From Dehalococcoidia bacterium (GTDB taxonomy: Bacteria > Chloroflexota > Dehalococcoidia > Lucifugimonadales > UBA3495), in NCBI GenBank assembly GCA_965216065.1, contig CBDCFB010000001.1, positions 1,554,548 to 1,618,547 on the forward strand: a stretch of DNA of 64,000 nt, read 5' to 3'. Below the pieces are notes generated by a model. The model ran no database searches and had not been told where the DNA came from. It worked only from the letters and a program-made list of their open reading frames with translations. Position numbers and translations under genes: made by a program. Positions 7,411 through 63,371 of the stretch are shown piece by piece (the first letter of the stretch is position 1; every line of letters starts with the position of its first letter).

Positions 7411-7527
7411 CCACTGGTGGGGGTCTGTTGATTCTCCCTCCCCCCTTGAGGGGAAGGCCCTTCGGCAGGCTCAGGAGGGACGGGGCGAATTCCTGAGTTT
7501 CAACGACCTTTCAACCAACGAGGGACG

Positions 7528-7560
7528 CCCTCACCCTAACCCTCTCCCCAAGGGAGAGGG
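7528..7560. repeat. CCCTCACCCTAACCCTCTCCC-N-GGGAGAGGG REP-like palindrome
   Basis: Near-identical copy at 10510-10541 and degenerate copy near 13832-13861. Confidence 0.75.
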
Positions 7561-7997: not shown

Positions 7998-8181
7998 ACA
8001 AATACCAAGGTGGGATGTGCCTTTCAGGGTCTTGAAGACGAGCGAAAAGACTCCACTGCTCCTCATCTGTCCTTTGGGCACCAAATGGGTCGCCACGACA
8101 GGGTGGTCTGCATAAGACCGCCCTTGGCCGCCAGGGCGGATTGTGCCTTGTCCGGCAACCATCAAGCTTAATTTTTGGCCT

Positions 8182-8296
8182 CTGGATTCCCGTCCCTGAT
8201 CAAGTCCGGGATGATGTTCTTTCGCGGGAATGAAAGGGATTCTTCCGGCCCTGCCGGCCCGATTCTTGTGTCGAAAATCAAGACGCGATTGCCCTG
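8182..8296. repeat. Composite REP-like palindrome plus solo ISAs1-like end
   Basis: CTGGATTCCCG-TCCCTGATCAAGTCCGGGATGA-..TTTCGCGGGAATGA similar to 54152-54205; TCAAGACGCGATTGCCCTG at 8278-8296 matches the end of the 49041-49311 element. Confidence 0.65.
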
Positions 8297-8398: not shown

Positions 8399-8836
8399 AT
8401 GGCTACCCAGACCAAATTTGAGCAGGTGACCAAGCCGCTGGTCAACATCACCGAGATGGACCACATCGTATTGCGGTCTCGGGACGTGGAAGAGTCGCTG
8501 CGTTTCTACACCGAGGTTCTGGGGCTGAAGGCGGAACGCGTGGAGCAATGGCGGGCAGGCGAGGTGCGCTTCCCCTCGGCGCGACTGAACGCCGACACCA
8601 TCATCGACTTCTTCGCCTCCGAGAACATGCCGGAGGACAAGGACGGGCCCCGCAACCAGGACCACTACTGCATGGTCATCGACCACACGGACATGGAAGA
8701 GCTGAAGGCCCACTTCGAGGGCATCGGCGTGGAGATCCAAGCCGGGCCTGGCAAGCGCTGGGGCTCCCACGGCGACGGCATTTCCCTCTACATCTACGAT
8801 CCGGACGACAACGTGGTGGAACTGCGCCACTACTAG
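8399..8836 (+). CDS. VOC/glyoxalase family protein
   Basis: MDHIVL..RDVEESLRFY..VLGL; SLYIYDPDDNVVEL. Confidence 0.9.
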   Translation: MATQTKFEQVTKPLVNITEMDHIVLRSRDVEESLRFYTEVLGLKAERVEQWRAGEVRFPSARLNADTIIDFFASENMPEDKDGPRNQDHYCMVIDHTDMEELKAHFEGIGVEIQAGPGKRWGSHGDGISLYIYDPDDNVVELRHY

Positions 8837-8856
8837 GCCGCGGCGGCTGGAGAGAA

Positions 8857-8889
8857 CAGTAGGGGCGGGTTTCAAACCCGCCCCTACTG
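8857..8889. repeat. GTAG-type REP palindrome between convergent genes (possible terminator)
   Basis: GTAGGGGCGGGTTTCAAACCCGCCCCTAC perfect inverted repeat; related copy at 54859-54886. Confidence 0.75.
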
Positions 8890-8916
8890 CTTTCCGTGGG
8901 CAGAAGAGTCAGGCGG

Positions 8917-10461
8917 CTATCCGGTCTGCTGGATGATCCAGTCGGCCACACGTTCACCGATCATGATGGTGGTGAGATTGGTGTTGGCCCGGATGACGTC
9001 GGGCATCACGGACGCATCGGCAACTCGCAGGTTCTCGATCCCGTGAACGCGGCCGTACTGGTCGACGACCGCCATGGGATCGCCGGAGGGGCCCATCTTG
9101 CAGGTTCCAGAGAGATGCTGCCCGATGTCCACGGTCTCGAGCATCCACTCGTCCAGCGTGTCGTCCGACTTGATCTCCTCAGCGGTGGGAGAAATGGCCT
9201 CCTCGACGATGTCGCTGAAGGACTCGTGCTCCATGAACTGGAAGGACATCCGAATGGCCTCCCGCATTCGCTGGCGGTCGACCTCCTCTTCGAGATGGCG
9301 GCAGTTGATATCCGGATTGTCCCCAGGGGTGGTAGAGCGCAGCTTAATTTCGCCGGAGCTCTTGGCCAGCTCCAGGATGCAGGTAAAGCGGATGCCCTCT
9401 TCGGCAAATGGGTCGCCTCCCAAAGGAGTGGAGAAAGACGACGGCAGAATCTGCATGTCGTTGCGCAGGTCGGAGCCGGATGCCGTGTAGCGGAGCACCG
9501 TCTGGATGCGCGGGGCCTCGGCGTCCAGAGGGAAGCCGGGCTTGGTCTTGACCCGCACTGCGCAGAGGGGATGATCGCGCAGGTTCTGGCCCACACCGGG
9601 GAGATCCTTGACCACTGGCACGCCCATCTCCTGCAAGTGTCCAGCCGGCCCGACGCCCGACAGCATCAGTATTTGCGGAGAAGCCACCGCCCCGGCGCTG
9701 AGAACAATCTGGTCGCTCTCGACGGTGAACGTCTCACCCCCGCTCTCCACCTCGACGCCGCAGGCCCTGACGCCGTCGAACAGGATGCGGCGCACCAGCA
9801 CGTTGCCGCGGATGGTGAAGTTGAGCCGGTGCCGGTTGTCGGTAATGTAAGTCAGGGCCGTACTCATCCGCACGCCGTTCGGGTTGTTCATGGGAAGCGG
9901 CCCGACGCCTGTCGAATCCGGGTGATTGTGGTCGTAGACTTCGGTGTAGCCCCCGGCGATGGAGGAGACGTGGAACGCCTCCTGGAGAGGCAGCCAGGCC
10001 TCGCGCTTGTGGCGGCGGACGGGGACCGGTCCGCTGTTGCCGTGGAAGTCGTCTACGATGTCGGTGTCGGTCTCTAGCTTGCGGAAGTAGGGCAGGCACT
10101 TCACGAATGACCACTCGTCGTTGCCCCATTCGGCCCAGCTGTCGTAGTCCTCGGGCACTCCGCGAAGGAAAACCTGGCCGTTGATGGCGCTGGTGCCGCC
10201 CACCACCCTGCCGCGGGGGACGACGACGTCCTCAGAGCGGACAGCGCTGCCCTTGCCGGTAAACGACCAGTTGTGGGGACCTCCCATCTCGGAAGCCCTT
10301 GGAGCGTAGCCAAACTTGAGGTCGTCGGGGGTCTGCTCGAGATCGACGTAGTCCGGCCCCGCTTCCAGCAGCAACACCGACCGGTTCGGGTCTTCGGCCA
10401 AGCGGCTGGCAAGTGCACCGCCACCGGAACCTGCGCCAATGACGATTACATCGTATTTCAT
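8917..10461 (-). CDS. GMC family oxidoreductase (choline dehydrogenase/MftG-like)
   Basis: GAGSGG FAD motif, GRVVGGTSAING, H-LSGTCKMG, LRVADASVMP..ANTN. Confidence 0.92.
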   Translation of the reverse strand: MKYDVIVIGAGSGGGALASRLAEDPNRSVLLLEAGPDYVDLEQTPDDLKFGYAPRASEMGGPHNWSFTGKGSAVRSEDVVVPRGRVVGGTSAINGQVFLRGVPEDYDSWAEWGNDEWSFVKCLPYFRKLETDTDIVDDFHGNSGPVPVRRHKREAWLPLQEAFHVSSIAGGYTEVYDHNHPDSTGVGPLPMNNPNGVRMSTALTYITDNRHRLNFTIRGNVLVRRILFDGVRACGVEVESGGETFTVESDQIVLSAGAVASPQILMLSGVGPAGHLQEMGVPVVKDLPGVGQNLRDHPLCAVRVKTKPGFPLDAEAPRIQTVLRYTASGSDLRNDMQILPSSFSTPLGGDPFAEEGIRFTCILELAKSSGEIKLRSTTPGDNPDINCRHLEEEVDRQRMREAIRMSFQFMEHESFSDIVEEAISPTAEEIKSDDTLDEWMLETVDIGQHLSGTCKMGPSGDPMAVVDQYGRVHGIENLRVADASVMPDVIRANTNLTTIMIGERVADWIIQQTG

Positions 10462-10509
10462 CCTTCGTGGCCTCCGTTTCCTAATAACTCTATATGTTCA
10501 AGGGATACT

Positions 10510-10541
10510 CCCTCACCCTAACCCTCTCCCGGAGGGAGAGG
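10510..10541. repeat. CCCTCACCC REP-like palindrome
   Basis: CCCTCACCCTAACCCTCTCCCGGAGGGAGAGG; sister of 7528-7560. Confidence 0.75.
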
Positions 10542-10590
10542 AGATTGCCCGGTCCTTCCCCCCAGAGAGGGAGTTGTCGGGGCGAATGGG

Positions 10591-12579
10591 CTAGTCGGCT
10601 ACGGGCTGCGCTTCGGCCAGTGTCCCTGCCATGGCGGCATAGTGCTCGGCGGCCTGCGCGACCAGGGGCGGGAGATCCTCCTCCAGCAGGTAGCCGTCAG
10701 CGACGAGTTGGCGGGCGTTGGCCTCGATGTGATCCAGAAAGGCCTGGCGGGACTCGTATCGCTCCTCGATGGAAGGGCGAGGGTCGCCGGAGGACTCACG
10801 TTCGGCGCGAGTGGCGGCAAAGGGGATGGAGGAGCCGCGCAAAGTGCCCCCCGAGGCGCCGCCGGTGGACAGCGTCTGCCCTTCGCCTCCGATGTCGGCG
10901 TGCCGACGGTTCCAGCCCAGGTGCGATGCCAGGGGCACCGAGACCAGGGGCAGCCGGATCCCCGCCACCTCGTTTCCGTCGGCGTCCACCTGTGACACGA
11001 GGCAGGGAAATTCTCGGCCCACGGTCGCTGGGACCACGGAAGGAACCCCGGGGTCGGGGCCGAAGTCCAGGCGGGTGAACTTCCGCACCGGGCTGGGGAG
11101 CCTCACGCCAGGTACCGCCTCCAGTCCGGGGGCTACCGCAGCGGGTGAGACGGCCGTGCCGTCTGCGATCCTCGGATACTGGCTGGGCGGTGCTGCCTCT
11201 CCGTAGGAAACCCACCGGTCCAGGTTCACCAGGGCCGCCCGCAACAGCGCCCGGTAGTCCAGGCAGTTGAAGGTGTGGGCTCCCCGGTAGCCATCGACCG
11301 GATCGGTGTCGGCGAGGGGAAGGCCACCGAGGGCATGCTGGGTGCCCGCGAAGGCGTACACGCGGACGGCATCGGGAGGCTCGAGATCGTGGGTGCCCTC
11401 AATGTCGGTGTGCACAAGCGCGCCGTGGCCCGCCCAGTACTCGGACGAGGTGTAGGTATTCATCACCTTGGGCAATTCACCCTGGGAAGCCAGCCGGGAC
11501 AGCAACCCGTCCGTCAGGCCGGTGTCAGGGTCGGTCTGCGGGGAGTCGGCAAAGGGGAAAAGGCTGTTGACGCTGCGGGTGGCCTGGCTGGAGGGCTGGG
11601 CGAAGCGCTGGTTGAACTCACCCCGCTTGCCGCCGGCCACATGGGGCATCAAGCCGTCGAAGACGGCACGCCCGGACTCGTCGTAGTTGAGGCCGTGGTA
11701 AAGGAAGGACCGCAGGAACCGGCCGCTCTGGGAGACGCCAAAGGCATAGGCGTGTTCGAGACCACCCTCGGCCTCGAAGCGCAGGTGGGAGGCAATATCG
11801 CGGGTGGCCACGAGTCCAAGCCCGGCCACGGGCGCGCCGGTGGTCGTGTAGATGACCTGGTACACCTTGCCCGGCTGGAATCCGCCCTCCAGATGGACAT
11901 GGCAGGGATCGGGAATCAGGCGGCCGTCCTCCAGTCTCGCGAACCACCACTGCTTCCGGGGTATGACGTGCTCACGGGCGTCCTCGTCGTCCTGGACGGT
12001 CATCACCGACTCCCAGTCCTCCAGCTTGTTGGCCGGATAGGCGCGGTGCAACCGGTCGGAAACGTACTGGACATCGGTCGGCGAGTTGGGCTGGAAGGTG
12101 ACCACGACCCTTCCGGAGACTGGCTTGCCGTCTTCCAGCGCTTCGGGAACCTGGATGCGCAACAGGCCGGGCGTGTCTGGAACGTCGTGCTGCCAGCCGC
12201 ACCATGCGACGGTATAGCCCTGGCGCATCAGGAACCCGTTGCCGGGGTCAAGGGGCGCGTCGGGCGCGACATCGGGCGCGCTGTTGATGTTGCGGAGGGC
12301 CAGCGCCTTACCACGATTCAGGACGTCCAGCAGCAGGCGCCCGTTGCCTTTCGAAGGGTCGTCGGGGCGCAGGATGCGGAAGTCGGACGAGAATTCCACC
12401 AGCCCCTGCCCGTTGCGGGGTGCCAGCGTGATGTCGGCGACGGTCTCGTTGGCCGGGTGCAACGGGTCCACGGCGAAATGGGCCGTACCCTCCACCTGGG
12501 TATAGGTACCGACCGTGCCGAAGGACTGCCCGTCGGCAAAAGGCTTCTGCGAAGTAATTTCGAGCCTGGTTACCGGCAT
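10591..12579 (-). CDS. Alpha/beta hydrolase domain protein (tannase-like/Abhydrolase_10 type)
   Basis: GVSQSGRFLR nucleophile motif, GWQHD, SSEYW, D.DGNE..GIRLP, DPRPSIEERY. Confidence 0.8.
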   Translation of the reverse strand: MPVTRLEITSQKPFADGQSFGTVGTYTQVEGTAHFAVDPLHPANETVADITLAPRNGQGLVEFSSDFRILRPDDPSKGNGRLLLDVLNRGKALALRNINSAPDVAPDAPLDPGNGFLMRQGYTVAWCGWQHDVPDTPGLLRIQVPEALEDGKPVSGRVVVTFQPNSPTDVQYVSDRLHRAYPANKLEDWESVMTVQDDEDAREHVIPRKQWWFARLEDGRLIPDPCHVHLEGGFQPGKVYQVIYTTTGAPVAGLGLVATRDIASHLRFEAEGGLEHAYAFGVSQSGRFLRSFLYHGLNYDESGRAVFDGLMPHVAGGKRGEFNQRFAQPSSQATRSVNSLFPFADSPQTDPDTGLTDGLLSRLASQGELPKVMNTYTSSEYWAGHGALVHTDIEGTHDLEPPDAVRVYAFAGTQHALGGLPLADTDPVDGYRGAHTFNCLDYRALLRAALVNLDRWVSYGEAAPPSQYPRIADGTAVSPAAVAPGLEAVPGVRLPSPVRKFTRLDFGPDPGVPSVVPATVGREFPCLVSQVDADGNEVAGIRLPLVSVPLASHLGWNRRHADIGGEGQTLSTGGASGGTLRGSSIPFAATRAERESSGDPRPSIEERYESRQAFLDHIEANARQLVADGYLLEEDLPPLVAQAAEHYAAMAGTLAEAQPVAD

Positions 12580-13790: not shown

Positions 13791-13894
13791 ATTGCTTGCT
13801 CCTTGTTGGTCGCTGATGTTGGGGACTTAACCCCCAGCCTGACCCTCTTCCGGAGGGGGAGACGGTTGGCAACGGGTCGCTTGAATCTCCTTGG

Positions 13895-15038: not shown

Positions 15039-16160
15039 TTGAGTCCTGCCCTCGGGCGGAAAAAGAGGGGATTTGACCTGAATCTCAGACTGAGTATTCT
15101 CGACCAGAGCCCGGTGCATGAATCGGAGGGCCCAGTCGAGGCCCTGCGTCGCACCATCGAGCTGGCCCAGAAGGCCGAGGAGTGGGGATTCCACCGGTTC
15201 TGGGTGGCGGAGCACCATGGCTCAAACCGCGTCATGGGATCGTCTCCCGAGATACTGGTATCCCACCTGCTGGCCCACACCTCACGAATTCGAGTCGGTT
15301 CCGGCGGCGTAATGCTGCAACATTACAGCCCCTACAAGGTTGCCGAGAACTTCAACGTCCTGGCCTCCCTCGCCCCAGGACGCGTCGACCTCGGCATCGG
15401 CCGGGGACCGGGCGGCCTGCCCCGCTCCACGGCGGCGCTGCGCCGCGGCGTCCTTCGACAGGGTCAGGATGAACGACAAGCTCAGGATGAACGGGAAGGG
15501 GAGTCTCACCACGAACCGGATATGACGCTGACGGAGAAGCTGGGTGAGCTGAAGCGCTTTCTGTTCGACGAACTGGAGGCGGACCATCCCTTGTCCGGGC
15601 TGCAGGCCAGTCCACTCCCGCCACAGCCACCTGACCTGTTCTTGCTTGGGACAACGCGATCCAGCGGTGATATGGCGGCGGAGTTGGCGATGCCCTACGT
15701 CTTCGCCCTGTTCCTGAACAACGACGAGGAAGAGATGGCGGAGGCCGTTCGGCGCTACCAGTCCGGCTTCGCCCTTCGACAAGCTCAGGATGATCAAGTC
15801 CAAGAAGGCGTCCGCCCCTGCACGATGCTGGCCCTGCCCGTAATCGTGGCCGACACCGACGAGGAAGCCGCCGAGTTCGCCTCCAGGATACAGGTCGTGC
15901 GCATCACCCTGGCGAGCGGGCGTACCCTGACAGTAGGCAGTGTCGAGGCTGGTGAGGAGTTCGGCAGGCAGTCCGGCGAACCTTACACGATCACTGTGCG
16001 ACAAGCAGGTGTCGTTCACGGAAATCGCGATTCGGTCAGACGGCAACTGCTGGATGTCCAGCAGAGATACAACGCGGACGAGATAATCGCTGTAACAGCC
16101 ATAGACAATTTCGCGAAACGCCTGCGCTCCTTCGAGTTGCTGGGCGGGTTGATAGAATAG
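15039..16160 (+). CDS. Luciferase-like flavin monooxygenase (MsnO8/CmoO-like) with two in-frame repeat insertions
   Basis: LSILDQSP, RFWVAEHH, RVGSGGVMLQHYSPYKVAENF; true start may be near 15078. Confidence 0.88.
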   Translation: MSPALGRKKRGFDLNLRLSILDQSPVHESEGPVEALRRTIELAQKAEEWGFHRFWVAEHHGSNRVMGSSPEILVSHLLAHTSRIRVGSGGVMLQHYSPYKVAENFNVLASLAPGRVDLGIGRGPGGLPRSTAALRRGVLRQGQDERQAQDEREGESHHEPDMTLTEKLGELKRFLFDELEADHPLSGLQASPLPPQPPDLFLLGTTRSSGDMAAELAMPYVFALFLNNDEEEMAEAVRRYQSGFALRQAQDDQVQEGVRPCTMLALPVIVADTDEEAAEFASRIQVVRITLASGRTLTVGSVEAGEEFGRQSGEPYTITVRQAGVVHGNRDSVRRQLLDVQQRYNADEIIAVTAIDNFAKRLRSFELLGGLIE

Positions 16161-24660: not shown

Positions 24661-25962
24661 CTAGTCATCCCCGGCGGCGGGGGCCGGGCCGCCCAGCGGC
24701 TGTGGCGTTTTGCCGCCGATGGAGAGGACCAGCAGCGCGGAGGCTATCAGCAGCCCTATGTTGGACCAGATAGCCCAGTCGTAGGTGCCGCGAATGTCGA
24801 ACAGTGTGCCACCGAGGGTAGCTCCCAAACCCGATCCAATGGGCATGACGGCAAACATGGTGCCGTATATCTTGCCCATGTGGGCTGTGCCGAAGTTGTC
24901 GGCGGTATAGGCGGCGGTGATTCCGACCACGGCGTTCCAGGACAGCCCAACCAGCAACACCCCCGCTACCAGGGCAACTATCCCAAGCGGTGGGACCCCA
25001 AGGAAAGAAATGCCCATAGACAGCAAAACAACGACGAACCCCAGCGCCCTCAACTGATAGGACACAGCCAGCCATGGGCGGCGGCCGTATTTGTCGGAGA
25101 AATGCCCCAGCCAGAGCGCGCCGATGATGGACGTGGCTCCAATGACGGCGAACATCAGGGCTGCCGTCCTGGGGGTATACCCGAGGTCCTGCACGTAGGT
25201 GACGAAGTGAGCATTCACGAAGCTCATCGAGTACCCTCAAACGAAGTACCCGAATGCCAGCTTCTGGAACATCGAGGTTTTGATGGCCTCGGTAAAGGAA
25301 AAGGTCACGTCCCCGCCCCGGCGCCGTCCCGCTCCCGCAGACAGGTTGTCGCCGGCACCGTAAGGGCTGAGGCCTTTGTCCTCGGGGCGGTTGCGAATGA
25401 ATATGATCCCGATTGGGAGGATCACCAGCAGGAGCAGTATCCCAAGGAAGAGATAGGCCTCCCGCCACGAAAACAAATCAAGGATTTCAGTCGTTGCGGG
25501 CACCAGGATCATGGCGCCGAAAGAGCCCGCCCCTGCTACCAACCCAAGGGTCAGACCACGTTTAACTACAAACCACTGGCTGACGATCTTTGTCAGGATC
25601 GGGCCGGTGCCCAGGGTCACACCCAAGCTCATAACGGCGAACAACGCATACAGCTGCCAAAGCGTTTCGATTCTCGGTATCAGGGCCAGCATCCACCCCA
25701 TTATCAGGACGCCCGACAGGGCAACCCACTTGGGGCTGTAGCGGTCGGCGAGGTATCCAGCAAAGGGGCGCAGCAGGCCCGAAATCACGTAGGTGACGCC
25801 GAAGGCTGCCGAAAGGGTGCCGCGGCTCCACTCAAATTCGTCGGTCATGGGCTTCAGGAATACGCCGAAGGAGAACTGCCCACCGGCGACGCCGAAGACG
25901 ACTAGCGAACAGCCGATGGCCACCCACCATCCGTAGAATATATTCCTGCCAAAGAGCCTCAT
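24661..25962 (-). CDS. MFS transporter (OFA/YcxA-like) with in-frame UGA at 25237-25239; candidate selenoprotein or nonsense pseudogene
   Basis: ORFs 25237..26076 and 24661..25227 are in the same frame: FQKLAFGYFV-TGA-GYSMSFVNAHFV; together they form a full 433-aa MFS starting MRLFGRNIFYGWW. Confidence 0.85.
25203..25229 (-). promoter_or_regulatory. Candidate SECIS hairpin in MFS gene
   Basis: mRNA CGA-UGAGC-UUCGUGAAU-GCUCA-CU-UCG; core stem begins 10 nt after the UGA. Confidence 0.4.
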
Positions 25963-26143
25963 ACACGTCTCCGGCCCTTGCGTCTCACGGTACGCGCATA
26001 CTAATCCCGCTCTGGGGCTTTGTCCACGAACAGGGGAGGATTGGCTTGCCCGCTTTCGGCCAACGGAACCACCCAACGGGAGTCCGATGCGCCAATGATT
26101 GAGGCAGTGTAAAATCAGGTCTACGCTAATGGAGGTCTACCGG

Positions 26144-29246: not shown

Positions 29247-30687
29247 CAGGCTGCTGAACAAGGGTCTTCACGTTTGGAATCGACGGGTCAAGTCGTTGGA
29301 GCTTGGGTCCTGTTGGAGGAAATTGTGCCGTTCACACGGGACTTTCAGCCCCTTCGGCTTCGCGGACCGGCCCTCTTGGGGGCACCGGGCATAGCCAGCC
29401 CCAGCTAGCCCATTGTCAGGTCATGCCATCCGGGCTTCCGGAGTTGTCGGCGCCTGCCCCAGCAGCTTGGACATCCGAACCAGGTTGTAGGCCGTGGCCA
29501 CCAAGTTCCCCGCCAGACCAGTCCGGTCCAATCCCCGGTAACGGGTCCGCCGGAATCCGCCCACGGTCTTCATCCACCCGAAGATCATCCACCCGAAGAT
29601 CTCCTCAACCCGTTTCCGTATCCGCTGGCTGACCGCGTACCCAGGATGCCGGGTGGTCCGGCCATCAATGGCGCTGGATCGCCCCATTTTGTTCTGCGCG
29701 ATGTGCGGCGTAACCCCGCGCCGGCGCAGGTCCGCCACGCAGTCCCGGGTGTCGTAGCCTTTGTCTCCGCCCAGCGTTCCGGGATGAAAGCCCCGTCCCC
29801 GGGCTTGCTCCAACAGTTCTGGCACTATATCCCGCTCCGCCGTACTCGTCGCTCGGGTGGTCTGAAAGTCCACCAGCATTCCATACCGGTTTTCCATCAG
29901 GGCGTGGGCCATGAACATCAACCTGGCCTCCTTGCCTTTACGCCTTTACCCTTGCGCAGCAACCGGGCCTCCGGGTCCATGGTGCTCTGATGGGTGGCAT
30001 TGCTGCGCCGTTCCCCATGGAAGTCAACCGAGGGGAAGTCAACCGAGGGGAAGTCAACCGAGGGGTTGCCCGGGTCAGCATCGGTTGTTCTGGGCGGGTC
30101 GCCGTCCTTGGGTTTGAAGCTCTTCAGGCTGGCTGCCGCCTCAATCAGGGTCCTATCCACCGTGAAGTGCCCGGAAGTGCTCGTCCGACAGCAGGCCCTG
30201 CCGGTCCGCCTCCAGCACCACCTCGCCGAACAATGCCTGGCCCACTCCGTGCCTGAGCAGCCGCTCCCGGTTCTTGGTGAAGGTGGTGGCATCGAAGCTG
30301 GCCTCAATCAGGTTCATATCCAGAAACCACCGGAAGAGGAGGTTGTAGTCCAACTGTTCGCAGAATGTCCGTTCACTGCACACCGAGTACAGGGCAATCA
30401 GCAATGACGACTTCAGCAGCCGCTCCGACGGGATCGAAGGATGGCCCACATTGGCGTACATCCGGTCCAGGTCCGGGGACAGCGCCTTCAGGGCTTGGTC
30501 CGCCAGCCTCTTGATAACACGCAGGGGATGGTCCGATGGCACTCGCGTTTCCAGGTCAATGAATGCCAGCATAGTCGCCTGTGAATCATATCTCCCGCGC
30601 ATCGGCTCAACCTCCGTCCAGGGTGGCGTCCTATTTTAACCAGTTCCCTCTGGACTGCCGGGCCACGCCGGGTTTTTCATCAGCCTG
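29247..30687 (-). mobile_element. IS5-family element with frameshifted transposase (30602 to 29421)
   Basis: TIRs CAGGCTGCTGAACAA / TTTTTCATCAGCCTG; motifs RVP.DHPLR, DKGYD, RKRVEEIFGW.K; several frameshifts. Confidence 0.88.
30019..30063. repeat. 15-bp tandem triplication inside IS5 transposase
   Basis: GGAAGTCAACCGAGG x3 (PSVDF x3). Confidence 0.9.
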
Positions 30688-30688
30688 C

Positions 30689-32078
30689 TAGTAGTCCATC
30701 AGTGTTGTATTGGTGGGTAGAGGGACTTGAGCTTGATGCGGGCATCCTCGGTGGTGAAGCGCCAGTCCACCCGTATTGCGTCCCGGTTGCGCTGTTGCTG
30801 CCACGCTCCCACCTCCCGCCGCAGAGCGCTTTGGTCGGGAATACGGCGGTTCAGGCATTGCCGGGCCATCACCCCGATTTCGATCTCCGCCATCCCTTCG
30901 GCAAGCTCAGGACAGGATCCAGCCAACTGCCATGCTTGGGAGTGTAATGGACCTCCAACCGTTCGGCGATGCGCCGCGCTTCGGCAGGCTCAAAGGCTTC
31001 ATACAATGAGGCTGGGTGGTGGGTGTTCAAGTTGTCCATCACCAGCACAATACGGTCCTTGTGCGGGTAGTCCTCGTCCACCAGTTGCTTGAGCACCCGG
31101 GCCCAATCGGCTTTCGTGCGCCGGTCCGTCACTTCCACCCGGCGCCACCCTTCCAGCGGAGCGAACAACATGAAGAGGTTGCTTACCCCGTTGCGCTCGT
31201 ATTCATAATCGTAGGAGCCCGCCGCCCCAGGCCGGGCCGGACGCGGCCGGCGCGTCTCTTTCACCTGTTGCTTGCTGGTCTCGTCCAGACAGACCAGAAC
31301 TTCGTTGTCCCCATACTGGCGCTGATAGACTTCCAGCACGTCTTCCATCGCACAGACGAACTCGGCGCTGCCTTGCGGCGGGATGCACCAGCACTCTTTC
31401 AGCCAAGGCTTGAGTTCGTTTTTTTGAGCGTCTGGCGCACCGTTTCAGTGCTGATGCTCTCCACTACCTCGCATTCGACCAGCCGGTCGGCCAATAGTTT
31501 CAGTGTCCAACTCGCCCGGCCCTCCGGCGGTTCTCCGCAGGCCAAGGCAATCAGGTGGGCTTCCCCTTGACCGTCCAACCGCTTCGGACGCCGGTTAACC
31601 TGCCGCTTTCGTCCCAGCGCCGCCTCAATCCCTTCCTCTACGCAGCGCCGGCGCACCCGTTCCACCGTCGCACGGCCAATCTGGAGAACCCGGGCAATGT
31701 CTTCATCCTTCATGGCCCCGTCCACTTGGGCCTCATCACTCAGCAGCAGGACGCGCCCGTGGGTCTGCTTGTAAGCCGCCCCCCGGCCACGGGACACCAA
31801 TGTCTTCAGTTCCTGCCGCTCCTCCGCACTCAGCTTGACCCGGTATCTCTTCATCGCCATCCCCTCCTCACACGTCCCAATCCTCTTCGCCCTATGCTTG
31901 GTACAATACACTCGCTCAGTACTCATTTCAAAGATGAATGACGCTTTCACAATTTGGGCGGTTTTTGGTCGGTTACCGCCTCGCGGAAGGCAAGTCGACA
32001 AAGCTGTCAAGCGCGTGGGAAAGTCGCCATAAGGTGGTGCTCAAGGTCCCTTCCTGGCGAAGCGTCGTTGTAATACTA
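30689..32078 (-). mobile_element. IS630-family element (transposase 31860 to 30699, frameshift at A7 31419-31425), disrupted by a 23-nt insertion
   Basis: HTH ORF ending LKKTNSSLG; DDE motifs CLDE, MDNLNTH, TPKHGSWL..AEIE; ends TAGTAGTCCATC / TAGTATTACAAC at CTAG sites. Confidence 0.88.
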
Positions 32079-32900
32079 GGTTCTGTTGCAACAGCAAGGA
32101 GTCGCCGCCGTTCAGCAGGAACCGGGTGGCATAGGTGTGCCGCATCAGGTGCGGATGCAGTCTGGGAATCCCGGCGGTCTTGGAAAGCCGCTCCGTGAGG
32201 GACCGCAGGGCCTCGGCGCCCATGGGGAGACCGTCGATGCACAGGAAGAAGGTTTCTGCTCGCTGCTCCTGATTTTCAAGACGGTAGTGTTCCAAGTAGT
32301 TGAACAGTGCCTCTTGGCGGTTGGCGCCGAAATCGACGATTCGCTCCTTGTCTCCTTTCCCAGCACCTTGACGTACCGGCTGCCGAAGTGGACATCCTTG
32401 TATTTCAGGGTGACGACCTCAGAGAGCCTGAGGCCGGTGTCCAGCATGAGGCTGAATATGGCGGTGTTTCTTGCCCCCAAGGTCGAGTTGGGGTTGATGC
32501 TGGAGAAAATCTTCTCGACCTCATCGTTGGTCAGGATGTCTATCTCCTTCTCCCTTGGCTTCGGCGGCTTCACCTTCTCGAGCCGGTGGCACTCGGTGTA
32601 ATCTTCCTCGTACAGCCAGTTAAAGAATGACCGCAGCGCCCTGACCCGGTTGTTGACTGTGTGGCTGGAGGCAGGGCTCCGCAGACCAGGTGTGGTCTTG
32701 AGACAAAGGATAAGGAGCCTCACCTCCTCCTTTCCGATATCATCCAGGCAGGCGGAGATGTCCTCTTCTGCCAGCCAGGTCTGGAATAGTCCCAAGGCCT
32801 GCTGGTACCACTCCACCGTCTTCTCTGAGAAGCCCTCTGACGCCTCGTAGACCATGAACTTCTCAACTAAACTGCTGAGTTCCAGCTTTCCCCGCTTCAT
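32076..32900 (-). pseudogene. Tyrosine recombinase/integrase, frameshifted (~32358) and truncated by IS630
   Basis: LDTGLRLSE, V.GKG.KER, HLMRHTYAT, LLQQNL then IS630 end where GH..Y is expected. Confidence 0.85.
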
Positions 32901-33044
32901 TTTCCTGCTCCGCCGTCTGGTTCCTGCTCTCATCATGACTACTTGCCTCAATTCGAGTAATGGACTGTCAGGCAAGCAAGATGGTCGTGAACCGGAACTC
33001 GTTCGTGACGGCAGGCAGCGTGTCGGATGTGTCCTTGGGCAACG

Positions 33045-33068
33045 AAAAAGCCGCCCGGTCGGGCGGCT
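33045..33068 (-). terminator. Intrinsic terminator downstream of tRNA-Arg
   Basis: Minus strand AGCCGCCC-GACC-GGGCGGCT-TTTT. Confidence 0.7.
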
Positions 33069-33127
33069 CTCTGCCCTCGGCTTCACCCCTGAAAAGGGGT
33101 GAAGCCAAGCTGAGTCATAGCTAATTG

Positions 33128-33203
33128 TGGCGTCCCAGGCAGGATTCGAACCCGCGACCCGCTGCTTAGAAGGCAGCCGCTCTATCCCCTGAGCTACTGG
33201 GAC
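33128..33203 (-). tRNA. tRNA-Arg (anticodon UCU)
   Basis: Full cloverleaf GTCCCAG-TA-GCTC..GAGC-G-GCTGC-CTTCTAA-GCAGC..GCGGG-TTCGAAT-CCTGC-CTGGGAC-GCCA, 76 nt. Confidence 0.97.
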
Positions 33204-33249
33204 TCCTTTCATGGGCGATGGCCAGGGGACCGTCTCGCCCTCTGCATTT

Positions 33250-33280
33250 ATCTTACAGGAAGAGTATTTTGCCTTGTCAA
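33250..33280 (-). promoter_or_regulatory. Probable tRNA promoter
   Basis: TTGACA-19 nt-TAAGAT on minus strand; spacer is long. Confidence 0.4.
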
Positions 33281-33671
33281 CTTTCGCGGGACGACATTTC
33301 TCTGTCTATCTTCTCCCATTATGCAGATCTGATTGGCTCCTCATAGACTCGGTGGGTTCGTAGACGAGCCATTGGTGCAGTCCCGGTGGAAACTTTGCCA
33401 AGATTCCCGGACGACCTCCGGCAGCCTTCCGTTTAAAGTGAACTTGTCTTGCGCCGGGCCACCATTGAGTCGGGGCAGGGTCTCTCAGGATTCTGCAAAA
33501 ACCGGACTCTCCTGAGCGCATCTCGGCATCTCGATACGACAGAGTGTCGATTCAGGAGTTTTGGATTCTAGGAACTTAGGCTCCAGTTGCTTTTTAATTC
33601 CCTCACCCGTGAGTGAAAGGGGTAGGGTAAGAGCCTTGAATTTCACTGTCGGCTCCCAGTCAGGGCCGCCT

Positions 33672-35533
33672 AGAAATCTGGCCGGAAAGTGGCGTCGGCC
33701 GGCCAGCGGCTATACTCGGGGTCATCAAGCGTAGCGGGGGCTGAGAATGCTGGGAGAGCGTTCAGACCAGAGGGGTCTCTGGGAAGCGGACCGGCTGTAT
33801 CTGGACCACGTGGGGAAAGACACCTTCTACGGTCTGCTGGCTTCCCTGCGGGGCAGGTTGTTCCGGGACTCTGATTTCGCCGAGTTCTACTGCGCCGATA
33901 ATGGCCGGGACAGCGTGCCGCCCAGCCTGCTGGCGACGGCCCTCCTGCTCCAGTCCCACGACAAGGTGAGCGACGCCGAGGCCAAGGCCCGGGCCGACTT
34001 CGACATACGCTGGAAAGTTGCTCTGGGCATTGAGGTGGAGGACAGGCCCTTCGCCAAGAGCACATTGCAGGTGTTCCGAGCCCAGCTGATCCTGCACGAC
34101 AAGGTGCGGGAGGTGTTCGAGTCCAGCCTGCGGCTGGCCGGGGAATCGGGCTACCTGAAGAGGCGCAGCATGAAGGTGGCGCTGGACACGACCAACATCC
34201 TGGGCCGGGGCGCGGTTAGGGACACCTACAACCTGTTGGCCGACGGGACCGTCAAGCTGCTGCGGGCGTTGGCGCAGGTTGAGGGAATCAGCGTCGGGAA
34301 ATGGGCCAAGGCCCAGGGATACGGGCGGTACCTTGCCTCCAGCATCAAGGGCGAGGCGGCCATCGACTGGTCGGACAAGCGGGCGCGCACGGCCCTGCTG
34401 GCCGGGATTGTGAGAGACGCTGACCGGCTGCTGGAATTGTCGCGGCAGGCGCAGGGGGAGTTGCCCGAGGATAGCGCCGAGCGTCAGCAGATAGTGGCGG
34501 CGGCGGAGTTGCTGGGGCAGTTGCTGCTCCAGGACGTGGAGCGAACGGAAGGCGGAGTGAGCCTCAAGGACGGGGTGAGCCGGGACCGGATGATGTCGGT
34601 GCATGACCCGGAGATGCGCCATGGGCACAAGAGCAGCAGCAGACGCTTCGACGGACACAAGGCGGCCATCGTCGTGGATACCGATTCCCAGCTGATCACC
34701 GCCGTTGAGGTACTGCCGGGCAACGCTCCGGACAACTCGGGGTCGCTGGAACTGGTGGAGGCGAGCGAGTCCAACACCGGTGTGCCGGTGGAGGAAGCCA
34801 TGGGCGATGCCGCCTACGGAGACGGCTATACCAGGCAGGCCTTCGCCGATGCAGGCCGCACCCTGATTGCCAGGGTGCCGGGCCGCCCCAACCGGTCTCA
34901 CTTTCCGAAAGAGGACTTCCATATCGACCTGTCCGGCGGGCACCTGCACCTGTCCGGCGGGGAACGTTACCCAGAGAATCCGGCCCTCAGGTACTCGCAC
35001 CACAGCAACAGGCCGGACTCACCAACTGAAGGCCTTCCAGTTCTATGGAGCGGTCTGCGGGGTGTGCCCGCTGCGGACCCAGTGCGTGGCCGCGGCACCG
35101 GGCACAGGACGGACGGTGCAACTGCACCCGCAGGAGGCTTTATTGCAGCAGGCCCGGGCCCTGCAGCAGAGCGAGGCCTTTGGCGAGTACCGCCAGCGCC
35201 GGGTGGTAGTGGAGCACCGTCTGGCGCGGCTGGTCCAACTGGGAATCCGCCAGGCGCGCTACTTCGGGCGCGCCAAGACGACATTCCAGCTGTACCTGGC
35301 GGCCACGGTGGCCAACCTGACCTTGGTCGCCGCCAAACTCGGACGGTCGGGCCGGGCCAGTGGCTGCCCAACAGGCCACAGCATCGTCCTGAATATTCTC
35401 CCCTCTGTTGTCGCCAATGCTACCGCCAGTTTCTCCGCAGTCCGCCTCGGACTGCTGTGGCCCGTGATTCTGCTCACGCCGGCTTTACTGCCCAAATATC
35501 TCTACCCAACGAGAACTTTCCGGCCACATTTCT
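33672..35533 (+). mobile_element. IS1182-family element with frameshifted transposase (from 33747; shift near 34935)
   Basis: 19-bp TIRs AGAAATCTGGCCGGAAAGT / ACTTTCCGGCCACATTTCT; DTT, GDAAYG, CTCPAG, C..CPLR..C, Y..R..VEH motifs split across two frames. Confidence 0.88.
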
Positions 35534-36203
35534 GGGACGAAACGCCGCCCGGCGAAACCGGTCCATAGACGCCTTCCCATATCCTCCGGTAAACGTGGTG
35601 ACTAGCGGAAGGTTTCCTTTGCCGTCTTCCTTCCCGGCTCCCTCTCGGGACCACCTTTCTCGGACGTTGGCCAGAAATTTTGCAGCACGCCGGAATACTA
35701 AGACGTGAGACCGTCGGGGCCGTTTGGCGCGCCCGGCTCGTGGCTCAAAACCGGACCGGAAGAAAGGAATTGTCCTACGCCAGTCGTGCCCAAACCTGCT
35801 CAAGAGCCCACATACTCACAGCGAAAGGCCTCCATCCTGGCCCCATCTTGCCATTTTACCAGCTTACGAGTGGTTGAAAATGGGCGTTTTGGGCGAAGGA
35901 AATTACCCAACTCCTCACCCAGATATCAGATAACTCTATTTGAGGAAGAGAGGGAATATCTTTGGGCCGCACCAGGACGCTATGCCTCGATGGTATCGTC
36001 TCCTCGCTGGTGCCAGCCCACGGAGCATGACACTGGCATGCCGAGAGGGCGGGGTTCCCCAGTGGCTCCGCAGATGTTGCGTCCCGTGAAGGTGAACGTG
36101 CCGCAAGCACCGGCCAAATTTGCGCTGTAGCGGGCCGTCTGGCAGAATGACATCAATTGATTCCGGCTAGAAGACGCCCGTTTGGCGAAAGGAGTGTTGG
36201 CCG

Positions 36204-42417: not shown

Positions 42418-43431
42418 ATGGCGTTGGGGATAGTAAGGCGTCCTGCATCGCCCCTGTGGAAGCATTCCCGCCTTCTCCTTGCACTTTGTGCCACCAGCCT
42501 GTTTGTGGCATTCGCAGGTCTCGTTTGCCTATTTCTCGCCCCCATTGTCGGCCCGGTGGTCTTCGACAGTCTTTGGGGCGTGGAGCCATTGAGCTATATC
42601 GGAGCCCTGCTTCTCATCGCGGGGTTGGCCGCGACGGGCCTCGGGATGGGCGCGGTTGTATTGAAGGGAAGCATCCGGGACGGGGGTGAATGGACTCCGG
42701 AAGAGCAGAACAATCACTGGAGAGAGACCACCGAGCAGTTTTTCAGGCTGTTTGACCACGACTTGGGACGGCCGCTGCGGCGCATCGCCGGGAAGCAGCG
42801 AGAGGTGCAGGCTGCCCTGGAAGCTTCCGGCGAGCTGTTCAATCCAACGGTCCAGGAACTGATGGACGAGATCGCCCGGCAGACGCCGAACTTCCGGCTC
42901 ATGCTTTCCAACATTGAAGTGCTGGTCCAGCTTGAGGCACCAGGGGACCCGCCCTTTTCCTCACCGGTGGAACCCTCTCAGATAGTAAGGCGTATAGCAG
43001 ACCGGTACACCCCGGTCGCTGCTGAATTGAACAAGGAGATCACCTGGTGGGCGGAACCATCAGAGTTTGGGATGGCGTCCTCGGACCCCCACGCTATCGA
43101 GCACATAGTCACCAACCTCGTCGACAACGCGGTGGCCCACGCCGATTCACGCGTTGATGTGACTCTTACCCGGGACGATTCCAGCTTCCATATAGGGGTG
43201 TGGGACGACGGGCCGGGCATCGCGGCCCAATACCTTGAACACATCTTCGACAGGGGCTGGACGCCCGAAGTAGGACAGAGGGAAGAAAAGACCAGTTCGG
43301 GCCTCGGCCTGTTTATAGCTCGAACGCTTGCCCGCCGTTGCGGCGGCGAAGTTACGGTGGAGTCAGCGTCCGCACCGCAGGTAGACCACCATACCGGTTT
43401 CCTCTTGTCCCTGCCTCTGAATGGCCGGTGA
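42418..43431 (+). CDS. Membrane sensor histidine kinase
   Basis: Two TM helices, H-box HDLGRPL, NLVDNA, DDGPGI, GLGL. Confidence 0.9.
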   Translation: MALGIVRRPASPLWKHSRLLLALCATSLFVAFAGLVCLFLAPIVGPVVFDSLWGVEPLSYIGALLLIAGLAATGLGMGAVVLKGSIRDGGEWTPEEQNNHWRETTEQFFRLFDHDLGRPLRRIAGKQREVQAALEASGELFNPTVQELMDEIARQTPNFRLMLSNIEVLVQLEAPGDPPFSSPVEPSQIVRRIADRYTPVAAELNKEITWWAEPSEFGMASSDPHAIEHIVTNLVDNAVAHADSRVDVTLTRDDSSFHIGVWDDGPGIAAQYLEHIFDRGWTPEVGQREEKTSSGLGLFIARTLARRCGGEVTVESASAPQVDHHTGFLLSLPLNGR

Positions 43432-48954: not shown

Positions 48955-49022
48955 CCGTCGTTCCCACGAAAGCGGGTATGACGGAAACTTTGTTATTCGT
49001 ATCGGAAAACTAAAAGACCCTG
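48955..49022. repeat. Partial copy (right end) of the 54064-54245 MITE
   Basis: GGG.ATGACGGAAAC..TGTTATTCGTA.CG.AAAACTAAAAGAC.CTG shared with 54197-54245. Confidence 0.75.
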
Positions 49023-49040
49023 CCCTCGGGTCCCTCGTTT

Positions 49041-54063: not shown

Positions 54064-54245
54064 CAGGGTCTTTTAGTTTTCACCCGTCACTCCCGCGAAA
54101 GCGGGAATCCAGAGGTCCAACTGCTTACAACACGACCACAGGTAGCCGGGCACTGGATTCCCGTCCCGGATCAAGTCTGGGATGACGTTCTCTCGTGGGA
54201 ATGACGGAAACAGTGTTATTCGTACCGTAAAACTAAAAGACTCTG
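54064..54245. mobile_element. 182-bp MITE carrying REP-like palindromes
   Basis: 17-bp TIRs CAGGGTCTTTTAGTTTT / AAAACTAAAAGACTCTG; 10-bp flanking direct repeat CGTTTGCGAC / CGCTTGCGAC. Confidence 0.8.
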
Positions 54246-54271
54246 CGCTTGCGACACGCAAATCGTACTGG

Positions 54272-54858: not shown

Positions 54859-54886
54859 GTAGGGGCGCACAACCGTGCGCCCCTAC
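54859..54886. repeat. GTAG-type REP palindrome
   Basis: GTAGGGGCGCAC-AACC-GTGCGCCCCTAC. Confidence 0.8.
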
Positions 54887-62151: not shown

Positions 62152-63371
62152 CCTACGGTCTGCTCAACGGCCTGCGAGTCCTTGAGTTCGGGGAATTCAT
62201 CTCTGCTCCGTATTGTGGCAAGCTGCTGGCCGACATGGGCGCCGAGGTGGTCAAGATCGAGCGTTCCCGCGTTGGCGACTGGGCCCGCGACTACGGCCCC
62301 TGGCCCGATGGCCTGCCACACCGCGAGCGCAGCGGCCTCTTCTTCTACCTGAACGCCAACAAGCGGGGCATCACCCTCAATCTGGACACCCCAACCGGCC
62401 GGGAAATACTCGCCGGACTCATTTCTCGCTTCGACGTCCTGGTCCATAACCTTCACCCCACTGAGATGGACCGGGTAAAAATGGAGTACGAGTCCCTGCG
62501 GGTGCACAACGACGGTCTCGTGATGGCCACAATCACTCCGTTCGGCCTGACCGGTCCGTACCGCAATTGGAAGGCCTACGACATCAATCTGGCAGCTGGC
62601 GGTGGCATCTGCGAAGGCCTGGGAAGCCCAGACCGCGAGCCGCTGACGTTCGGTACTCCGGAGGTGGGCTACTTCGCCGGAGCAGCTGCGGCGTCGTCGG
62701 TCGTCATGGCCTTGCTCGCGAGGGGAGACGATGGCCCTCCGGCGGGCTCAGGAGGGCAGCATATCGACATCGCCGAAATCGAGTCGATGGCTGGCCTGTA
62801 CAACGGCTCCGAGGCGCTGATGGCGGTCTACCAGTGGCGCGTCACCCGCCGCACCGGGCACCACGCCCTGGACTTTCCCTACCCGAACTGCATCCTGCGC
62901 TGCAAGGATGGTTACATATTCGTTGGCTCGCCCGAGGGGCGCCAGTGGCGTCGGCTACTGGAACTGATGGGAACACCCGAATGGTCGCAGGAGCCGCGCT
63001 TTCGAAACCGCACCGTTATGAACAACGAATACGCTGACGAGGTGGACAGTTACGTCGAAGAGTGGCTGCTGCTGCACACCAAGGCCGAACTGCTGGATAT
63101 GGCCCTGGAGCACCGAGTACCCCTGGCACCGGTGCGCGGCTTTGATGAGGTGCGGCAGGACCCCAGCTTGTCCTCCATGTTCTCCGCAGTGGAGCGGGCC
63201 GACACCGGGTCTATCGCCTTGCCGGGCCCTCCCTACGAATTTTCGGCCGCCACCTCCAGTCAGTCTGCGCCCTGTCCCACCTTGGGCCAGCACAATAGCG
63301 AAATTTACTGCGGAGAGCTGGGATTTTCTCCGGAGGAAGTGGCCCAGTTGTACCGGACCGGGATCATATAA
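62148..63371 (+). CDS. Family III CoA-transferase lacking the canonical catalytic Asp
   Basis: MGAEVVKIE, NANKRGITL, ITPFGLTGP; EVGYFAG at the position of IGDL in the upstream paralog. Confidence 0.88.
   Translation: MTYGLLNGLRVLEFGEFISAPYCGKLLADMGAEVVKIERSRVGDWARDYGPWPDGLPHRERSGLFFYLNANKRGITLNLDTPTGREILAGLISRFDVLVHNLHPTEMDRVKMEYESLRVHNDGLVMATITPFGLTGPYRNWKAYDINLAAGGGICEGLGSPDREPLTFGTPEVGYFAGAAAASSVVMALLARGDDGPPAGSGGQHIDIAEIESMAGLYNGSEALMAVYQWRVTRRTGHHALDFPYPNCILRCKDGYIFVGSPEGRQWRRLLELMGTPEWSQEPRFRNRTVMNNEYADEVDSYVEEWLLLHTKAELLDMALEHRVPLAPVRGFDEVRQDPSLSSMFSAVERADTGSIALPGPPYEFSAATSSQSAPCPTLGQHNSEIYCGELGFSPEEVAQLYRTGII

Follow-up and report, generated by a model that had tools for sequence, protein, structure and literature searches.

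The subject of this analysis is a 64,000-nt stretch of DNA of a Dehalococcoidia bacterium (contig CBDCFB010000001.1, positions 1,554,548 to 1,618,547), which we call the window and in whose coordinates positions are given, and within it a gene encoding a luciferase-like (LLM) flavin-dependent oxidoreductase. The gene contains two short segments that are very probably units of a repeat family resembling repetitive extragenic palindromic (REP) elements, inserted in frame. This family, which we call family A, is common to Chloroflexi and to Alpha-, Beta- and Gammaproteobacteria. The complete statement that we favour, namely that single family-A units were inserted in-frame and are spread by a trans-acting enzyme encoded elsewhere, appears to us on balance probable. 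The gene and its inserted segments are as follows.

15039-16160, + strand: host LLM gene, MsnO8-family luciferase-like flavin-dependent oxidoreductase; frame intact; the true start may be downstream of 15039.
15449-15475, + strand: family-A unit 1 at LLM site 1, GTCC-TTCGACAGGGTCA-GGAT-GAACGA; peptide VLRQGQDER; nhmmer E 6.9e-5.
15474-15494, + strand: partial family-A unit 2 at LLM site 1, in tandem, 18 nt from unit 1; peptide QAQDER; nhmmer E 1.7e-4.
15495-15518, + strand: possible third unit, degenerate, of the 'CCAC' variant (...GAGTCTCACCACGAACCG), weak; peptide EGESHHEP; nhmmer match restricted to 15505-15518, E 4.7.
15771-15793, + strand: family-A unit at LLM site 2, with the perfect 13-nt core TTCGACAAGCTCA; peptide ALRQAQDD; nhmmer E 2.8e-5.

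The product of the LLM open reading frame (ORF) scored 330.7 bits with TIGR03558, the curated cut-off of which is 166.95, with residues 18-368 covered, and its best solved homolog was PDB 4us5 (E 8.8e-42). The ORF at 15039-16160 is stop-free through both segments, which read RRGVLRQGQDERQAQDEREGESHHEP and SGFALRQAQDDQVQEG, respectively. At site 1 Tandem Repeats Finder delimited an array at 15456-15493 with a period of 18, 2.1 copies and 90% matches. The stretch at 15495-15518, similar to the CCACGAACGG tails that the variant class shows in our alignment of units, could tentatively be counted as a third unit. At site 2, DNA comparison showed that the window allele is longer by a net 24 nt than the empty alleles. 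Aligned with the window protein, PDB 4us5 lacks 14 residues at the first segment and 2 plus 5 at the second. The family alignment, like that to PDB 4us5, has its internal indels at these two insertion places, which may correspond to surface loops.

We found more than 100 LLM orthologs at 65-88% identity, with lengths between 284 and 457. In the alignment of 28 of them the length varied at three internal places, one close to the N-terminus (site 0), one following AALRRG (site 1) and one following RRYQSGF (site 2). The state of these sites was assigned by simple pattern calls in 92/120 proteins, with one identical protein and 28 proteins lacking the anchor motif left out. Family A was present at site 1 in 36/92 orthologs and at site 2 in 15/92, hence 56 and 77 orthologs, respectively, were without it. 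The number of units at site 1 varies from 0 to about 6. The shortest filled allele, that of locus L005 (L-numbers denote loci around LLM orthologs), contains a whole unit with a net gain of 15 nt relative to the empty site, which reads CGC GGC GAT GGC GAA CCG. In L008, L031 and L010, which are more distantly related, the length is that of an empty allele, hence the filled state is derived. The initial annotation had described the segments as in-frame insertions of a very short element: the motif sequences do stand where it had placed them, the LLM frame is intact, and the segments are missing from part of the orthologs, including the outgroups. In locus L062 site 2 of the LLM gene (10001-11065) is occupied by an unrelated 21-nt tandem repeat (PDPLVNS x4), thus this site takes inserts of several kinds.

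A search with the 18-mer CCTTCGRCARGCTCAGGA, allowing up to two mismatches, gave five matches in the window, at 7459, 15452, 15773, 30895 and 62736, against 0.01 expected, and none of 100 shuffled sequences reached five. All five are on the + strand, whereas copies in other loci occur on both strands, a difference that is not significant at n = 5. An nhmmer profile built from 42 copies of other genomes only, with no window sequence included, found 15771-15793, 15449-15475 and 15474-15494, and also 7459-7483 (E 0.005) and 30895-30913 (E 0.018). It did not recover the copy at 62736, which reached only 8.6 bits with R1, a covariance model made from 46 aligned family-A units. The recurrence of the core outside the LLM gene, described in the initial annotation, thus held for 7459 and 30895; the degenerate copy at 62736 has as its evidence a 5-residue indel relative to a paralog, a solved homolog and orthologs. 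Two further candidates were rejected as copies. One, a 13-mer match at 30980-30992, belongs to the native coding sequence of an IS630-family transposase, as its peptide FEPAEARR is also found in intact homologs; the other, at 43245-43268, was weak (nhmmer E 4). A scan of the window with Rfam at the gathering score detected only a tRNA. The three copies outside the LLM gene are:

7456-7485, + strand: intergenic family-A unit, with no coding ORF over it; nhmmer E 0.005; adjoins the BoxC-type motif at 7529-7559.
30891-30916, + strand: family-A unit in an IS630-family transposase gene (gene on the - strand); net 23 nt; the frame shifts after ...HYTPKHGSWL.
62733-62756, + strand: degenerate family-A unit in a family-III CoA-transferase gene, read in a different frame as PPAGSGG; net +15 nt, 5 residues.

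By class, the copies in the LLM and CoA-transferase genes are in-frame, the one in the IS630 gene is frameshifting and the one at 7459 is intergenic. The copy at 62736, which has 2 mismatches, coincides exactly with a 5-residue gap both in the window paralog and in PDB 4ed9. The lengths of CoA-transferase orthologs range from 402 to 514, 402 being the commonest. Among the 120 orthologs listed, 10, including that of the window, read GVSSASSAG, GASTSSGG, GASTGSRG, GPAAGSGG or GPPAGSGG at this place, and the commonest forms are short; at other places CoA-transferase orthologs contain BoxC-type (LTLTLSQGERG) and reverse family-A (EPVEG) segments. In the IS630 gene three-frame translation showed that the transposase frame ends with ...HYTPKHGSWLDPVLSLPKGWRRSKSG followed by a stop, and that the C-terminal part, MAEIEIGVMARQC..., runs on in another frame at 30702-30893. 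In three intact homologs the sequence HGSWLN[MI]AEIE is unbroken, and the window pieces match Pfam DDE_3 and HTH_32, thus the net 23-nt insertion has shifted the frame of the transposase. The amidohydrolase gene next to the LLM gene in L001 carries a reverse family-A unit (PVLSQSKG, +18 nt, +6 residues), which is missing in 8/9 orthologs compared. Another insertion of 18 nt, read as GPSPAS, is present in the same gene (8729-9781). Further in-frame copies were found in the linker of a binding protein of the tripartite ATP-independent periplasmic (TRAP) type, in a DDE transposase and in another ORF. In L018 there is a family-A cluster upstream (60-166) of a DDE_Tnp_1_4 ORF (454-1458), and a unit within its 3' part (1279-1313); this ORF matches profile positions 3-312 of 435 only. 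It may be a second transposase disrupted by family A, or an insertion sequence (IS) that landed in a cluster.

The structure of the unit was deduced from family-A units gathered from 80 loci around LLM orthologs and from plasmids, 46 of which were aligned. The unit is about 25-27 nt long: a stem of 4-5 bp, variable in sequence, encloses the invariant 13-nt loop TTCGACARGCTCA, and GARCGG follows as a tail. The stems fall in classes: ..TCC before the loop goes with GGA.. after it, ..TGG with CCA.., and there are rarer GGGC/GCCC and CCC/GGG forms. Among the 46 units positions 7 and 23 were CG in 19 and GC in 19, positions 8 and 22 were GC in 20 and CG in 19. The stem covariation was 0.444 versus 0.223 in shuffles, none of 500 of which reached it, and slid partners gave at most 0.19; this measure is a count of sequences and not of events, and few independent compensatory changes lie behind it, in two main classes plus some three variants. 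When a stem of five pairs around the 13-nt loop was considered, 76% of cells were paired, versus 60% in shuffles. The two flanks of the loop thus covary, and each unit is a small hairpin in which the loop rather than the stem is conserved. The unit alignment contained no invariant flanking tetranucleotide that would serve as an unpaired GTAG or CGTC end tag; CGTC occurs only in some units, and there within the stem. By direct reading of the consensus unit, 4/6 frames are open, and the frames used in working genes are among them.

Family-A units occur singly, as head-to-head and tail-to-tail pairs, in clusters and in a tandem array. The inverted pairs, found outside the window, span 55-90 nt, and three of them fold as long hairpins (z -3.2 to -3.5). 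The array, at 5818-6106 of L024, has eight head-to-tail units with a period of 36-37 nt and no unique spacers, i.e. it is a pure tandem array. A protein search with the translated 36-nt array, made for taxonomic breadth, gave 3,092 candidates, none of them significant. These results alter the earlier picture of an element of about 22 nt: the unit is a hairpin, and it belongs to a REP-like family which elsewhere forms inverted pairs, clusters and arrays of the kind known as bacterial interspersed mosaic elements (BIMEs).

The 13-mer core, with at most one mismatch, occurs 48 times in 893 kb (the window and 45 non-Firmicutes loci) versus twice in 694 kb of 35 Firmicutes loci, which carry the same gene family. 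All but two of the 45 non-Firmicutes loci are named Dehalococcoidia, Chloroflexota or SAR202. In these sampled regions, as distinct from whole genomes, the core matches are mostly intergenic or at ORF edges, and some are in unrelated genes. With model R1 the 80 loci gave 46 hits (E <= 1), many of them its own training rows; the 35 Firmicutes loci contributed no hit. Plasmid records matching an inverted pair of 71 nt from one of the Dehalococcoidia loci numbered 25: nine of Moraxella, six of Phyllobacterium, three of Nitratireductor, two each of Comamonas, Sphingobium and Novosphingobium, and one of Methylobacterium. Of four that were read, an AT-rich Moraxella plasmid has an intergenic tail-to-tail pair, a Comamonas plasmid a cluster, a Sphingobium plasmid a tail-to-tail pair, and a Nitratireductor plasmid a perfect 24-nt inverted pair enclosing about 60 nt. 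The consensus printed for Rfam RF02901, a small RNA of Aggregatibacter, holds the family-A core; family-A pairs scored 21-27 bits with this model, below its gathering score of 97. There were no family-A matches in 5,426 E. coli genomes, and in the phage collection the family was found in one metagenomic record only.

The variable sites of the LLM gene are also occupied by two other repeats. Family B fits the printed consensus of the intrastrand-triplex motif BoxC/PIT/TMECO (PMC4666352). In the window it is found at 7529-7559, 10511-10541 and, in weaker form, at 13828-13862, and in other genomes at LLM site 2 of L004, L005, L040 and L001. It occurs in 595 plasmid records and in 4,970/5,426 E. 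coli genomes, at a median of 9 places per genome; in E. coli K-12 BoxC is described as always intergenic (PMC4666352). In 30/92 LLM orthologs a family-B repeat is read in frame at site 2 (TPSPQPSPGGRG, +42 nt), and this happens also in CoA-transferase orthologs. Family C, hairpins of the form ATTCCC...GGGAAT, is located at 8186-8231 and 54157-54202 in the window and at LLM site 0 of L001 and L007, and fits the printed description of the CGTC-1 REPs (dRS3 / RPE-6 type; PMC3733652). An 18-nt copy of it is read in frame (RLRGND or REGGND) near the N-terminus, at site 0, in 35/92 LLM orthologs. None of the three repeats was present in 25/92 orthologs.

The variable loops of the LLM protein turn over much faster than the rest of it. 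The median pair of LLM cores is 88% identical, and some nearly identical pairs differ in state: one pair (99.3% identity) in the presence of BoxC, a second (98.2%) at site 2, where one protein has family A and its partner BoxC, and a third (97.2%) in the presence of family A at site 1. For the core without its three variable stretches, a quick maximum-likelihood tree required at least 19 state changes for family A at site 1, 10 for family A at site 2, 26 for BoxC and 10 for the CGTC-type repeat. When branches with support below 80 in the Shimodaira-Hasegawa-like approximate likelihood ratio test (SH-aLRT) were collapsed, the corresponding numbers were 13, 8, 17 and 9, and with a limit of 90 they were 6, 4, 8 and 3. 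The pattern of presence and absence could fit recurrent insertion, precise loss and recombination alike. Similar turnover is seen outside genes: the spacer between the convergent glyoxalase-family and glucose-methanol-choline (GMC) oxidoreductase genes varied from 80 to 531 nt across the 12 genomes compared, and in 8 of the 12 it holds differing mixes of A, BoxC, CGTC-type and GTAG units, resembling a BIME. Hairpins of the classical GTAG-REP form (GTAG...CTAC) are present in convergent spacers of the window at 8859-8887 and 54859-54886, and have relatives in orthologous spacers.

That the segments arose by chance similarity, low complexity or faulty assembly has hardly any probability in our opinion. 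Two weak matches, discarded above, are not copies, but the excess over expectation and the recovery of the LLM copies by an independent profile contradict such an origin for the segments; moreover, a protein 100% identical to the window protein (P0002) is encoded on another contig, and the same LLM insertions are found in complete long chromosomes of related metagenome-assembled genomes (MAGs). It is also very improbable that the segments are functional peptide motifs under selection, whose likeness at the DNA level would be secondary. The peptide LRQAQ(D/G)E is indeed kept in many orthologs at both LLM sites, but most orthologs lack the segments, proteins that are 97-99% identical differ in having them, and in other orthologs BoxC or an unrelated 21-nt tandem repeat stands at the same site. 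Furthermore, the same DNA is found in intergenic regions, is read in three other frames elsewhere, and breaks a transposase gene.

Turning to family-A units as mobile sequences, we infer that family A is selfish and mobile, and that its units are pasted by an enzyme encoded elsewhere, for example by a Y1/HUH transposase of the REP-linked kind; the invariance of the loop across phyla suggests recognition by a protein. In the mechanism that we propose, the LLM gene would have received single units at two places that tolerate changes of length. At site 1 part of a unit would then have been duplicated in tandem with the 18-nt period, and slippage during replication is the simplest way in which the arrays of orthologs would have expanded to several units. 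Working genes would keep only copies with a net length that is a multiple of three and with a stop-free frame, and LRQAQDE in the LLM protein, PxAGSGG in the CoA-transferase and PVLSxSKG (reverse) in the L001 amidohydrolase would be the surviving readings; the 23-nt copy in the IS630 transposase gene, which is dispensable, shifts the frame. Neutral decoration is the most likely role of the added peptides.

The enzyme-driven, single-unit mode of spread is the more tentative part of this proposal, and we consider its chances to be somewhat short of even. Besides the small number of independent events behind the stem covariation, several observations weigh against it. No member of the Y1/HUH family was detected at E <= 1e-5 among 53 selected ORFs of the window, in agreement with the initial annotation, which had seen no mobilising enzyme; the transposases of the window are of DDE types only, and one of them is itself broken by family A. 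The surroundings (2.5 kb) of 18 family-A sites, with 109 ORFs, likewise contained neither a Y1/HUH protein nor any other candidate enzyme. The two in-gene LLM copies of the window do not fold significantly (z +0.99 and +0.03). The net insertion sizes differ (15, 15, 18, 23 and 24 nt), bases of the target appear to have been replaced, and no target-site duplication was seen at the junctions of single units or pairs that were read, which were few; clean cut-and-paste fits these features poorly. Finally, the left junctions are identical in all filled alleles (RRG|VLRQ and GF|ALRQ) and the same element alleles recur on different LLM core backgrounds, so that much of the homoplasy could go back to a single old insertion which recombination has spread.

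The variation of the sizes, the replaced bases, the lack of target-site duplications and hints of microhomology make a templated patch or gene conversion a serious rival. According to this explanation, which we think unlikely, there is no dedicated enzyme, and the units originate from template switching or ectopic gene conversion from genomic copies, seeded by microhomology, with patches replacing target bases. The empty site 1 (...GGC GAT GGC GAA CCG) resembles the 3' end of the unit (...GGATGAACGG), and in the filled L005 allele the whole unit overlaps this unit-like stretch. The copy in the L001 amidohydrolase deviates from the consensus by CAGT in place of CTGT, and CAGT is also what empty alleles show there. 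For some site-2 alleles the gain is limited to 3 residues, with about 4 replaced, which would suit patching, as would the failure to find an enzyme in the window or at the sampled sites. On the other hand, few junctions were read, the microhomology was noticed by inspection, the IS630 copy (23 nt) is near the full unit length, as expected for insertion of a whole unit, and the invariant loop speaks for recognition by a protein over passive copying. A different possibility, and a rather more improbable one, is that the mobile unit is the inverted pair of 55-90 nt, similar to a REPIN (REP doublet forming a hairpin) or to a MITE (miniature inverted-repeat transposable element), and that the single units in genes are remnants left after deletion of one arm and the spacer. 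Such pairs are common and fold strongly, and the perfect arms on the Nitratireductor plasmid have a MITE-like look. In Pseudomonas the REP doublet rather than the singlet is thought to replicate, a point mentioned in PMC3733652, and this too counts for the pair. However, the peptide of the partner arm was seen, by eye, in none of the 36 site-1 and 15 site-2 LLM alleles, which weakens a model with the doublet first; the copies in the L001 amidohydrolase and the IS630 gene are also single units, and the pairs that were read are not flanked by target-site duplications.

It is useful to compare family A with systems already described. In-frame insertions of REP-type sequences, of the GTAG and of the CGTC kind, are documented for several bacteria besides Rickettsia (PMC3733652). 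The Rickettsia palindromic elements (RPEs), ten families of about 150 bp with 44 insertions in R. conorii (PMC10969869), resemble family A in being found both between genes and in frame in unrelated metabolic genes, where the peptides are tolerated, and in having no known dedicated transposase (PMC10969869, PMC3733652). The analogy drawn in the initial annotation is thus appropriate in kind, as family A has in-frame copies in unrelated genes plus intergenic copies. The RPEs add tens of residues in Rickettsia (PMC10969869), whereas family A, with 23-27 nt, adds 5-8 residues net; unlike the RPEs, with which it was compared by description only, it is often tandem, lives in free-living or sponge-associated Dehalococcoidia and is shared with Proteobacteria. 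REP, BIME and REPIN sequences are stem-loops of 20-40 nt, located mostly between convergent genes, as dimers and clusters and sometimes in ORFs (PMC3733652), and family A is the same in these respects. It differs from REPs in having no GTAG/CGTC tag, in its conserved loop and variable stem, and in that no REP-associated tyrosine transposase (RAYT) was found near the sites scanned. The CGTC-1 type (dRS3 of Neisseria, RPE-6) has intragenic copies without an associated transposase gene (PMC3733652), which applies to family C but not to A: the stem is 8-9 and the loop 4-5 in this type, versus a 4-5 bp stem and a 13-nt loop in family A.

BoxC/PIT/TMECO is likewise a short repeat that is spread across distant bacteria and linked to locally variable DNA, but family A differs from it in sequence, and is a hairpin, whereas the structure of BoxC is a triplex-type mirror repeat (PMC4666352). 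The intergenic repeats RU-1/2/3 and the enterobacterial repetitive intergenic consensus (ERIC) are also found within genes, where they add peptide (PMC2759123); they are MITE-like and 103-168 bp long, i.e. family A is about five times shorter. MITEs have target-site duplications and a source IS with the same ends; family A does have inverted arms (as on the Nitratireductor plasmid), but neither of these was seen at the junctions read. We found no published description with the 13-mer core or the typical peptides of family A, in a search that had figures, supplements and subscription journals outside its reach. Family A thus seems to be an undescribed repeat family, while the in-frame insertion of hairpin repeats is itself already known.

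Some other features of the window deserve mention. Longer intergenic repeats of 57 and 53 nt, 87-88% alike, pair 8177-8233 with 54148-54204 and 48974-49026 with 54197-54249; they abut at 54148-54249 and appear to form together a composite element of some 100 nt, parts of which are copied in other places. The region 29421-35708 is rich in transposases, with DDE_Tnp_1 and DUF772 fragments at 29421-29921 and 30153-30602, the broken IS630 at 30702-32010, and a 653-residue ORF with DUF772 and DDE domains at 33747-35708; a tRNA-Arg(tct) gene lies at 33128-33203. A transporter gene of the major facilitator superfamily (MFS) at 24661-26076 (- strand) is interrupted by one in-frame TGA at 25237-25239 (FGYFV*GYSMSFVNAH). 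In 7 orthologous loci (64-80% identity) the same position has TGA, never TAA or TAG, and a distant paralog has Cys. The 31 nt after the TGA are nearly invariant, synonymous sites included, and a conserved 5-bp hairpin begins 11 nt downstream. We regard this TGA as a candidate selenocysteine codon with a bacterial selenocysteine insertion sequence (SECIS). No selenocysteine machinery was found in the window, and in a literature search the term 'major facilitator superfamily' was absent from the papers among the matches listed.

With these results the colonization of genes in frame by hairpin repeats extends from Rickettsia to abundant marine or sponge-associated Dehalococcoidia, with units of 5-8 codons, and translation into protein is seen to be possible for the BoxC triplex motif and for CGTC-type REPs as well. 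In practice, units of this sort increase the variation of gene lengths, give rise to spurious small ORFs and can be mistaken for functional motifs in metagenome annotation. More than 100 orthologs of two enzymes, with filled and empty sites and three or four repeat families, make this data set favourable for studying how REP-like units move. It is conceivable, although in our estimate improbable, that the hairpin unit of about 25 nt is the substrate of a widespread machinery, acting on single-stranded DNA or templated by RNA, which pastes single units into coding DNA. If this were true, family A would be the shortest autonomous mobile DNA unit known, and a steady source of new, fast-evolving protein loops in these bacteria.

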